Assembly: GCA_958366945.1 (NCBI GenBank)
Contig: CATXCY010000004.1
Coordinates: forward strand, 30,803-94,802
Reading direction: 5' to 3'
DNA: 64,000 nt
Source: an uncultured bacterium
Lineage (GTDB): Bacteria; Vulcanimicrobiota; Xenobia; Xenobiales; Xenobiaceae
Part shown: positions 63,059-64,000 of the stretch, one piece after another
Layout of the letters: each line of letters starts with the position of its first letter
Numbering within the stretch: the first letter of the stretch is position 1
Notes under the pieces: generated by a model
Told to the model about the DNA's origin: nothing
Seen by the model: the letters and a program-made list of their open reading frames with translations, nothing else
Database searches by the model: none
Position numbers and translations under genes: made by a program

Positions 63059-63195
63059 GCGAATATTTTATAATCAGTTGCGAGAGCAAAGTTTAAATGT
63101 TAAAAGTCTCTGCTTCTCAGGTTTGTTGGCTGCGTTTACACCTATAGCAAGCTCCAGACGTAAAAAAGCCTTACGCTTTGCTATAGGCTAAAATC

Positions 63196-63384
63196 ACATA
63201 GCTAATGAGCTGGCCGAACACCAATTAGCGTTTCTAGAATTGAAAACTACGCACATTTATGCTATGCAAAATTTATAGCCTAATTGTTTAGTTCGTTATA
63301 TCCCTCCTCGAAAGATCGCTGACGCGATAAAGTTTTCTCCGGTGGCTATAACGAACGTTTTAGCGGCTATAAATTTCATTTATG
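63196..63384. repeat. Copy A of an approx. 200-bp noncoding direct repeat with nested inverted repeats
   Basis: CATAGCTAATGAGCTGGCCGAACACCAATTAGCGTTTCTAGAAT...AATTTATAGCC...CGTTATATCCCTCCTCGAAAGATCGCTGACGCGATAAAGTTTTCTCCGGTGGCTATAACG...GGCTATAAATTTCATTTATG; internal inverted repeats AAATTTATAGCC/GGCTATAAATTT, CGTTATA/TATAACG and ATCGC/GCGAT. Confidence 0.6.
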
Positions 63385-63656
63385 TCAGCCACTTTTGCAC
63401 GCAGCGCTTTTGCGTTATACACGTACTAGCGTAGTTTTAAACCAACTGGCGGAAGCAATGGCGAATGGAAGGCGAAGAACATTGGCCGCTAGGCCAGTTC
63501 AAGCCTGGAAGAGCCGCTGCTGGAGCCAGCCAACATGAACATGAGCCCGCAGCCATAACTTATAGCGAAATTTTTTCGCCATATCGGTAGCGCAGGCCTC
63601 TGGCCACTTCGTGGCCAGTCAGCCGGAGCGTAGATATGGCAAAAAATAAAGCTAAC

Positions 63657-63894
63657 ACTACATAGCTAATGGGCGGGCCGAACACTAATTAGCGTTTCTA
63701 TAATGAAAAACTACGCAACAAACGAGTAAGCGAGTGCAGTCTTCATGCGCTTAGCATTTTGCGCTATGCATGTTAGCGCTAAATTTATAGCCTCGTTGCT
63801 TAGTTCGTTATATCCCTCCTCGAAAGATCGCTAACGCGATAAAGTTTTCTCCGGTGGGTATAACGAACATTTTGGCAGCTATAAATTTCATTTA
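63657..63894. repeat. Copy B of the same repeat (with an approx. 35-bp internal insertion)
   Basis: Near-identical blocks (CATAGCTAATGGGCGGGCCGAACACTAATTAGCGTTTCTATAAT...; TTAGTTCGTTATATCCCTCCTCGAAAGATCGCTAACGCGATAAAGTTTTCTCCGGTGGGTATAACGAAC...CTATAAATTTCATTTACG) in the same orientation, about 460 bp downstream of copy A. Confidence 0.6.
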
Positions 63895-64000
63895 CGCAGA
63901 CGCAATTTTTCGTGAGCTTATAGTGCGGCTGGACTGCAAAAAAGCAAAAAAAACGCCCTGCCTTACGACAGAACGTCTTTTTCTTTTGAAAATATTTTGA

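Follow-up and report, generated by a model that had tools for sequence, protein, structure and literature searches.

Truncated tandem copies of a conserved, structured non-coding unit bracketing split rRNA units in gut Xenobia

ERIC elements are imperfect palindromes of ~127 nt that are conserved across species, and repeats of the REP, BIME and REPIN type are mosaics of distinct intergenic motifs built from palindromes of 20-40 nt in hundreds of copies. Here we describe a repeat array at the end of a 64,000-nt stretch of contig CATXCY010000004.1 (assembly GCA_958366945.1), from an uncultured bacterium of the family Xenobiaceae; the whole stretch is referred to as the window. Its last 0.9 kb, the tail, contains two truncated tandem copies of a conserved, structured and clade-specific non-coding unit that brackets split rRNA units. 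The array shares with REP-type repeats the mosaic of distinct intergenic motifs (here P, X, S, L and R), but its modules measure 60-300 nt and the hairpin module R occurs only twice in 64 kb. An earlier interpretation of the window made from its letters alone (the sequence-only reading) had noted two same-orientation repeats of ~200 bp in the tail and had suggested structured small RNAs, a repeated regulatory element or a miniature inverted-repeat transposable element (MITE). The class Xenobia is named in PMC9758169, and unlinked rRNA genes have been reported to be widespread (Brewer et al., bioRxiv 10.1101/705046). In the literature on Riflebacteria, Xenobia and unlinked rRNA genes, no description of such repeat arrays was found.

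A modular super-unit and its copies

BLAST mapping across loci (cited here by L numbers) resolves the whole tail into recurring modules P, L, R and S, and other loci contain an additional module, X, between P and S. The cyclic order R-P-X-S-L / S-L-R is constant in ~25 loci with variable content, and the super-unit consists of P-X-S-L (~720 nt) and the hairpin R (~150 nt with its leader), ~0.9 kb in total. In the window, copy 1 has lost X and S and reads P-L-R, and copy 2 has lost P and X and reads S-L-insert-R. The two ~200-bp repeats are the L-R parts common to both super-units. A direct-repeat search recovers them as a left pair of blocks, equivalent to the two L modules (67 nt, 87% identical; Table 1), and a right pair containing the hairpin (63266-63382 and 63778-63894; 117 nt, 92% identical). 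As start-to-start offsets are 464 nt for the left and 512 nt for the right blocks, copy B contains 48 extra nt between its blocks; an extra segment had been noted here before, at a size (~35 bp) that proved too small.

The nested inverted repeats described earlier are present in full. R copy A is a hairpin with 12-bp outer arms (AAATTTATAGCC/GGCTATAAATTT, matching at 12/12), a 13-bp inner stem (GTTCGTTATATCC/GGCTATAACGAAC, 13 nt at 92%) and an apical ATCGC-UGAC-GCGAU (ATCGC-tgac-GCGAT in the DNA). The 10-bp inverted repeat CCTATAGCAA/TTGCTATAGG at 63141-63187 and the palindrome TGGCCAC-ttc-GTGGCCA at ~63601-63617 were likewise confirmed. Module P, which the stop codon of a 363-aa class I S-adenosylmethionine-dependent methyltransferase abuts, is orphaned in the window because its usual partner X is deleted; P copies elsewhere are 80-98% identical (L008, L010, L014, two in L017, L020, L025 and L027) or 76% identical (L032). 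Module S stands out in the GC profile with 52% GC against ~35-40% around it. In the complete S-L(B) unit, hairpin domain 1 has its apex at 63483-63496 and domain 2 spans 63572-63646 with its apex at 63600-63619. The R leader TTTTGCGCTATGCATGTTAGCGCT is kept in most R copies and is replaced in copy A. No open reading frame (ORF) of 60 aa or more follows position 63058, as had been stated, the longest in the ORF list being 48 aa.

Two probes of 26-30 nt, allowing up to 3 mismatches, each match only these two sites in the 64 kb (0 expected from shuffles), and BLAST of all blocks against the window returned no match beyond the tail. Across all loci, 27 R hairpins were tallied in 25 loci. A 20-mer from the hairpin core identified 10 loci in five metagenome-assembled genomes (MAGs), all of them GTDB species representatives and labelled 'uncultured bacterium' (Hadza gut), 'Candidatus Riflebacteria' or 'UBP9', and a gapped pattern matched 14 metagenome contigs, five of which stem from one sample and have similar coverage. 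There are 1-4 R matches per MAG, with at least 4 R copies in one MAG. The suggested family of repeated elements is thereby borne out, with its blocks in at least five GTDB species representatives and in metagenome contigs, several per genome. No module was detected in ~130 kb from sister lineages. The family is multi-copy and occurs only in MAGs of gut Xenobia (Eremiobacterota, 'UBP9'). Orthologs of the methyltransferase with ~50% identity are annotated as Candidatus Bruticola (class Xenobia, phylum Vulcanimicrobiota/Eremiobacterota), a placement with which the 'UBP9' label agrees. Labels conflict among the family-bearing MAGs (L009/L010, CAAGRW01), with 'Candidatus Riflebacteria' and 'UBP9' on one side and Bruticola/Xenobia orthologs on the other; the 'Riflebacteria' label on one MAG is probably outdated.

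L002, from the same species as the window and the two-unit locus L001, contains one unit only, an A-left/B-right recombinant; copy number within the species thus changes by unequal homologous recombination. Many copies are truncated and comprise S fragments, orphan P or orphan L modules. Contigs with an identical methyltransferase all stop 96-1024 nt past the gene, and three Logan k=31 contigs break at 63188-63190, exactly at the P|L junction; breaks at this non-canonical junction are expected in a genome that also contains canonical P-X copies at other sites. In L025, an extra hairpin-forming segment of ~135 nt (GCCGCTTCTC...GAGAAGCGGC; L025:5250-5385) lies between X and S in this copy only, possibly as an additional optional module.

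Conserved helices, sequence constraint and strand signals

Structural alignments comprised only 8-9 sequences, except for that of R with 27 copies. The GC-rich S spacer is the best-supported structured module. The S-L(B) unit of the window has a minimum free energy of -113.5 (z = -6.0), and both strands of it fold far better than shuffles; for unit A, too, shuffled controls fold less well than either strand (z = -2.8 and -3.6). The consensus of nine S-L units contains 74 pairs with 94% of cells paired, and 10 pairs have changed on both sides compared with 2.4 +/- 1.3 in shuffles (0/500) and at most 5 in slid controls. The GCGGGC of the L arm pairs with GCCCGC of S in 9/9 complete S-L units; GCGGGC is found in all S-linked copies, and the orphan L copy A reads GCTGGC. 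In the closing helix, L032 has GCGCAAUUUUU/AAAAAUUGCGC where other loci have GCGUAGUUUUU/AAAAACUACGC, which amounts to two double changes. The S-L unit of L032 is only ~75% identical and whole helices of its domain 1 differ in sequence, and folded alone it adopts the same architecture (z = -8.0). One helix pair of S occurs as A-U (four times), G-U (three times) and G-C (once), and the hairpin tips of S vary in length and stay complementary (GGCC-GCUA-GGCC compared with GGACGCGC...GCGCGGUCC).

The P-X unit has similar features. Its minus strand is 97% paired, six pairs display G-C/G-U/A-U series, and 12 compensatory cells compare with 4.9 +/- 1.9 in shuffles (0/500). Four compensatory pairs lie in domain 2 of X (G-C x5/U-A x4; C-G x3/G-C x3/A-U x2; U-A x4/C-G x3; G-C x4/A-U x3). 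The earlier description of the elements as structured is thus supported by conserved helices with compensatory changes in both S-L and P-X.

Constraint on the modules was assessed at an array that follows a ribonucleotide reductase (RNR) gene at the same syntenic site in two species. The RNR proteins are 94% identical with 66% identity at codon position 3, and the first ~60 nt past the RNR stop codon are unalignable between the same two species. Within the array, S is identical at 84/85 positions, R at ~96% and L at ~95%. By this sequence comparison the family is far more conserved than neutral DNA would be. Eight full S copies are 87% identical by column, and the more distant L032 contains tandem P-X-S-L with a period of ~725 nt and 74-77% identity to the window modules. 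Copies cluster by locus and not by genome. As the sequence following R is common to orthologous copies and not to paralogs of the same MAG, the copies are old paralogs rather than recent insertions. The window itself lacks an ortholog of the RNR locus and hence offers no empty-site comparison there, and the methyltransferase/symporter ortholog loci in Bruticola and other relatives contain neither rRNA unit nor array, so that only L032 added divergence.

The modules differ in the strand they favour. Consensus folding and G-U wobble cells lean to the plus strand for S (fold -76.5 plus, -65.2 minus; 13 compared with 5 wobble cells), to the minus strand for P-X (-55.7 and -75.8; 6 and 25) and slightly to the minus strand for R (-31.7 and -37.9; 1 and 11), with S-L close to balance (-78.8 and -77.3; 17 and 15). 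The modules disagree, and no single transcribed strand fits them all. Pairs for the wobble test were chosen by Watson-Crick support alone, and the test therefore favours neither strand a priori. A wobble bias that is opposite between modules and consistent within them argues for selection on folded single strands; double-stranded sites would not produce it.

Modules at the borders of split rRNA units

Rfam searches of other loci identified 16S, 23S and 5S rRNA genes beside the modules, and in L002 and L024 the 'post' segment with which the window ends is joined to the 3' end of small-subunit (SSU) rRNA. The L002 contig continues into the 3' end of a minus-strand 16S gene, and alignment to it places the 16S 3' end ~94 nt past the window. 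In place of the further repeat copies that had been anticipated past the window end, the trailer and 3' end of this minus-strand 16S rRNA gene follow. The 0.9-kb tail fills the space that separates the methyltransferase operon from the terminator of an unlinked minus-strand 16S unit. This terminator, the 16S unit's own, is intrinsic (63983-63946, minus strand) and consists of a 17-pair stem followed by TTTTTTTTGCTTTTTT.

Upstream of 16S, read in the sense of the rRNA, the order is R hairpin, 51 nt, the promoter TTGACA-N17-TAATAT, a 237-nt leader and 16S, and the distance from R to the 16S 5' end is exactly 262 nt in L018, L024 and L030. The promoter adjoins R in L011, L012, L014, L017, L018, L024 and L030 and is truncated in L015. 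Such a promoter of the 23S type lies next to R in L016 and ahead of 23S-5S in L025; in the latter locus, 5S and its own terminator are followed by P-X-S-L. Leader and trailer of the 16S unit pair as a processing stem, which is followed by the terminator. The positions of promoters, terminators and the 5S terminator thus place the modules outside the rRNA transcription units, and they sit just outside the separate 16S and 23S-5S units, on both sides. The rRNA genes form two separate units, 16S alone and 23S-5S (past window position 64000, minus strand; L024:1219-2721; L025:1652-4859), each with its own near-consensus TTGACA-N17-TAATAT promoter and intrinsic terminator and with no joining tRNA or internal transcribed spacer. 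A linked 16S-tRNA-23S operon was rejected, as the sole such locus is chimeric: L018:6853-9256 contains a 16S that is 100% identical to that of the lineage for ~900 nt and then drops to ~75%, continuing into foreign tRNA and 23S genes, which identifies L018 as an assembly chimera. Two small minus-strand ORFs at L025:660-1240 separate the 23S promoter from the upstream array, a place where R directly adjoins the promoter in other loci; they resemble an insertion of two small genes, possibly a toxin-antitoxin module.

Arrays also occur away from rRNA genes: after the RNR gene, beside a Schlafen/AlbA_2 gene and beside helicase/HEPN genes. The 480-aa Schlafen gene (AlbA_2, HATPase_c_4 and Fic-like_C) recurs beside arrays, inserted at the L|R junction (L015:6428-7882, minus strand; L008:4987-6426; L010, gene start), and the region upstream of it is conserved and rich in repeats. 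The -10 box of an rRNA-type promoter in L015 has given way to the 3' end of this gene, which may be a cassette of mobile or defence type aimed at these spacers. Further defence-type neighbours are an SNF2/NOV_C helicase, DUF499 with HEPN, and a type I restriction-modification specificity subunit (L008:556-3909, L017:2570-6019 and L028:1663-3114), which points to variable genomic islands as the location of some arrays.

Several other origins were considered and rejected. The flanking genes are unrelated (RNR, symporter, Lnt, Sel1, helicases, Obg, ClC, NAD kinase and the type I restriction-modification S subunit), which speaks against a leader or riboswitch of one gene class. A sequence beside R that resembled the end of a transposase-like multi-copy gene is the reverse complement of the rRNA promoter. 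The modules have no similarity to rRNA or spacer sequences from which they could derive. No matches indicated a viral, phage or plasmid origin, and the gapped R pattern occurs in no viral contig.

Table 1. Features of the tail and its borders (window coordinates).
Feature	Position	Strand	Evidence and description
Methyltransferase, last protein-coding gene	61967..63058	+	ORF list; Pfam Methyltransf_11; orthologs with 50-99% identity
Module P, orphaned	63059..63186	-	Hairpin CCTATAGCAA(GC)...(GC)TTTGCTATAGG at 63141-63187
Module L, copy A	63187..63253	+	Left block A of the sequence-only reading; orphan 3' half of the S-L unit
Module R, copy A	63266..63394		108-nt imperfect hairpin, 63269-63376
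Module S	63401..63650	+	GC profile; GC-rich 'spacer' between the copies of the sequence-only reading; two hairpin domains with tips of varying length
Complete S-L(B) unit	63427..63718	+	Closing helix GCGUAGUUUU...AAAACUACGC; GCCCGC/GCGGGC bridge
Module L, copy B	63651..63717	+	Left block B; 3' half of the intact S-L unit
Extra segment of copy B	63718..63777		Insert 63718-63753, also in L025; R leader 63754-63777
Module R, copy B	63778..63900		Hairpin 63781-63888; 92% identical to copy A
'Post' segment, end of the 16S transcription unit	63901..64000	-	Terminator scan; SSU rRNA junction in L002 and L024

Elsewhere in the window, tRNA-Glu(CTC) and tRNA-Gln(CTG), 7 nt apart at 45682-45839 (minus strand), are the sole RNA genes identified by Rfam and ARAGORN. 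Genes for an F420 ligase (CofE-like) and a luciferase-like monooxygenase lie beside tsaBDE (51597-53593 region; L001:1-1626); F420-linked genes are unusual in a gut bacterium, and this lineage is gut-associated. A local GC peak of 57% (compared with ~35-45%) at 60200-60600 falls inside a Band-7/zinc-ribbon gene and is overlapped by a 214-aa antisense ORF (60022-60666); it probably reflects the composition of the zinc-ribbon repeats and no second gene.

Possible nature of the modules and comparison with described elements

We favour the explanation, at even confidence, that the two differently deleted super-units of the tail, like the other rRNA-bracketing units, work as folded single strands and most probably as non-coding RNAs. 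S-L would be read from the plus strand of the window and P-X, perhaps together with R, from the minus strand, and the units would be neither MITEs nor double-stranded protein-binding sites. Two putative RNAs diverging from the X|S junction would fit the opposite strand leans. We speculate that they serve at the borders of the rRNA units, which are very highly transcribed, for example by insulating or punctuating transcription or through an RNA function linked to rRNA. A more specific version is tentative: the modules could be undescribed ornate non-coding RNAs of gut Xenobia, with S-L (~300 nt) and an opposite-strand P-X (~330 nt) diverging at X|S, several gene copies maintained directly outside the split 16S and 23S-5S units, R as a boundary element and a function tied to ribosome synthesis.

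Several observations weigh against this explanation. Neither a scan nor inspection by eye of the R leader, the region upstream of P and the X|S junction identified a conserved sigma-70-type promoter in or next to any module, although the rRNA promoter of the same lineage is canonical. The only intrinsic terminator found by a scan of the tail is that of the 16S unit (63983-63946). No strand is favoured overall, with S-L about equal, and the window's own S-L prefers the minus strand. The 36 pairs of R are almost invariant in the 27 copies and include no compensatory change. Most of the covariation comes from one divergent lineage (L032) and two X sequence types among the 8-9 sequences, and processes acting on DNA, either template switching at quasi-palindromes or the co-evolution of transposon ends, can likewise produce compensatory change. 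Finally, copies that are truncated and yet highly conserved fit gene conversion better than selection on each intact RNA. With respect to R, its end reads AAAUUU without a U-run, unlike an intrinsic terminator.

A serious rival, which we regard as possible though less than even, is that the modules are lineage-specific mosaic palindromic repeats of the BIME/REPIN, ERIC or BOX kind, acting or persisting as DNA or single-stranded DNA hairpins and homogenised by gene conversion. Their spread and homogenisation would be due to an HUH-type enzyme acting in trans, to recombination or to gene conversion, and they would accumulate where spacers tolerate them, for instance beside rRNA units or between convergent genes. 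The modules are indeed imperfect palindromes forming a mosaic of conserved order and variable content, they occupy the 3' ends of genes, the gaps between convergent genes and positions external to transcription units and point either way relative to protein-coding genes, and both of their strands fold far better than shuffles. Truncated fragments that remain conserved, a copy number that varies through recombination and the missing promoter in or beside the modules point the same way. However, copies are few, from a handful up to perhaps a dozen in each genome, the rest of the 64-kb window and ~130 kb of sister-lineage DNA contain none, and the modules are 5-10 times as long as REP elements, with long-range helices that span 300 nt around multi-branch interiors. 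Neither a target-site duplication (TSD) nor, in the available loci, a parent element was found, the wobble bias differs between modules, and copies cluster by orthologous locus with 96-99% identity where synonymous sites have 66%, unlike neutral selfish copies. We consider it unlikely that the modules serve instead as protein-bound regulatory or architectural DNA of rRNA units, with upstream activating or insulating and downstream boundary elements that block read-through or manage supercoiling and replication-transcription conflicts, copies away from rRNA being relics of former rRNA sites. Such a role would account for the position and orientation of R, which are fixed in 8/8 rRNA-upstream loci at 51 nt from the -35 box, for arrays that start just past the 16S and 5S terminators, and for the joint presence or absence of array and rRNA unit at orthologous sites. 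L015 also keeps a truncated rRNA promoter by its array where the Schlafen/AlbA_2 gene now lies, which shows that arrays can outlive their rRNA unit. Yet binding sites need no nested helices of 100-300 nt with compensatory change and variable tips, P-X-S-L faces opposite ways on the two sides of the 23S-5S unit, the tandem P-X-S-L of L032 lacks R, and the arrays of L007, L008 and L009 lie far from any rRNA gene.

Classical MITEs, internally deleted transposon derivatives mobilised in trans and inserted twice here, are very improbable. The perfect 12-bp terminal inverted repeats of R (AAATTTATAGCC/GGCTATAAATTT), the 10-11-bp terminal inverted repeats of S-L (GCGTAGTTTT(T)/(A)AAAACTACGC), the multiple copies and the assembly breaks at modules resemble such elements, and the sequence-only reading had named a MITE-like element. 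This proposal was not upheld: a TSD is found in 0/27 R copies (no abutting repeat of 3 nt or more, only a 2-nt 'CA' of the conserved flank), no transposase lies beside the arrays, and no parent insertion sequence was found in the available loci. Moreover, the sequence outside the inverted repeats also consists of conserved modules, the R 12-mer is almost never found outside R in ~400 kb of loci, module order is fixed rather than randomly nested, orthologous copies are old, conserved and grouped by locus, and the one-unit/two-unit difference is an A/B recombinant and not an excision. A degenerate pseudogene, which had been named as the finding that would overturn the repeat interpretation, or a set of small protein genes has a negligible probability. 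A gene caller predicts a 41-aa ORF in S (L001:11499-11624) and the tail contains several ORFs of 30-48 aa, but indels disrupt the 41-aa ORF, among them an 11-nt hairpin insertion in L017 and L026, R has stops in the three plus-strand frames, a 20-codon minus-strand ORF has its start codon only in some copies, and conservation tracks helices rather than codons. Type I toxin-antitoxin long direct repeats (LDR/SIB-like) were rejected as well, since no ORF is conserved across copies (11-nt indels, stops). As for known RNAs, neither the tail nor the composite loci matched Rfam 15 even at E <= 10, and the best sub-threshold matches were terminator-like or miRNA-hairpin-like and at chance level; the suggested Rfam/Infernal comparison thus returned no known family in the tail. 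A tRNA or tmRNA was rejected, ARAGORN reporting only the tRNA-Glu and tRNA-Gln at 45.7 kb.

If the modules are RNAs, they constitute a new large structured non-coding RNA family from an uncultured host-associated phylum that is genomically tied to rRNA, and would offer a testable lead to lineage-specific ribosome biology. If they act at the DNA level, they are unusual palindromic repeats, few, long, constrained across species and bounding the most heavily transcribed units, and bear on the long-standing question of the function of ERIC/BIME-type repeats. In addition, short-read assemblies break, and sometimes turn chimeric, at the arrays and at the rRNA units between them, which affects MAG quality and the linking of 16S genes to genomes.

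Among described systems, the gene order agrees with that reported by Brewer et al., in which 16S forms its own unit and 23S-5S is separate; that study concerns gene order, and the structured repeat arrays bracketing the units are the feature described here. Similar to OLE, GOLLD, ROOL and HEARO RNAs, the modules have nested helices over hundreds of nt with compensatory changes and variable tips, are non-coding, have elevated GC in an AT-rich genome and sometimes occur in more than one copy. In contrast to these RNAs, they lack an Rfam hit and an identified promoter or terminator, the signals of adjacent modules lie on opposite strands, many copies are truncated, and they are located just outside rRNA units. 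The R hairpin resembles ERIC/IRU of Enterobacteriaceae (~127 nt) as an intergenic, multi-copy, imperfect palindrome that is conserved between species and has size variants from insertions at fixed internal or adjacent points, but is present in few copies per genome, fixed beside rRNA promoters and part of the ordered set with P, X, S and L; its lineage (Eremiobacterota) is unrelated, and the likeness is one of description, not of sequence comparison. The arrays share with BIME/REP-REPIN and with BOX of Streptococcus pneumoniae the ordered mosaic of palindromic modules with variable content, the location in post-gene and convergent-gene spacers and the potential for stable DNA or RNA hairpins. 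They differ in module length (60-300 nt and not 20-60) and in copy number (tens at most and not hundreds), and, compared with BIME/REPIN, no RAYT transposase was seen within the 64-kb window and the loci of up to 21 kb. Unlike these mosaic repeats, the arrays described here bracket rRNA units and are conserved at orthologous sites far above the neutral level.

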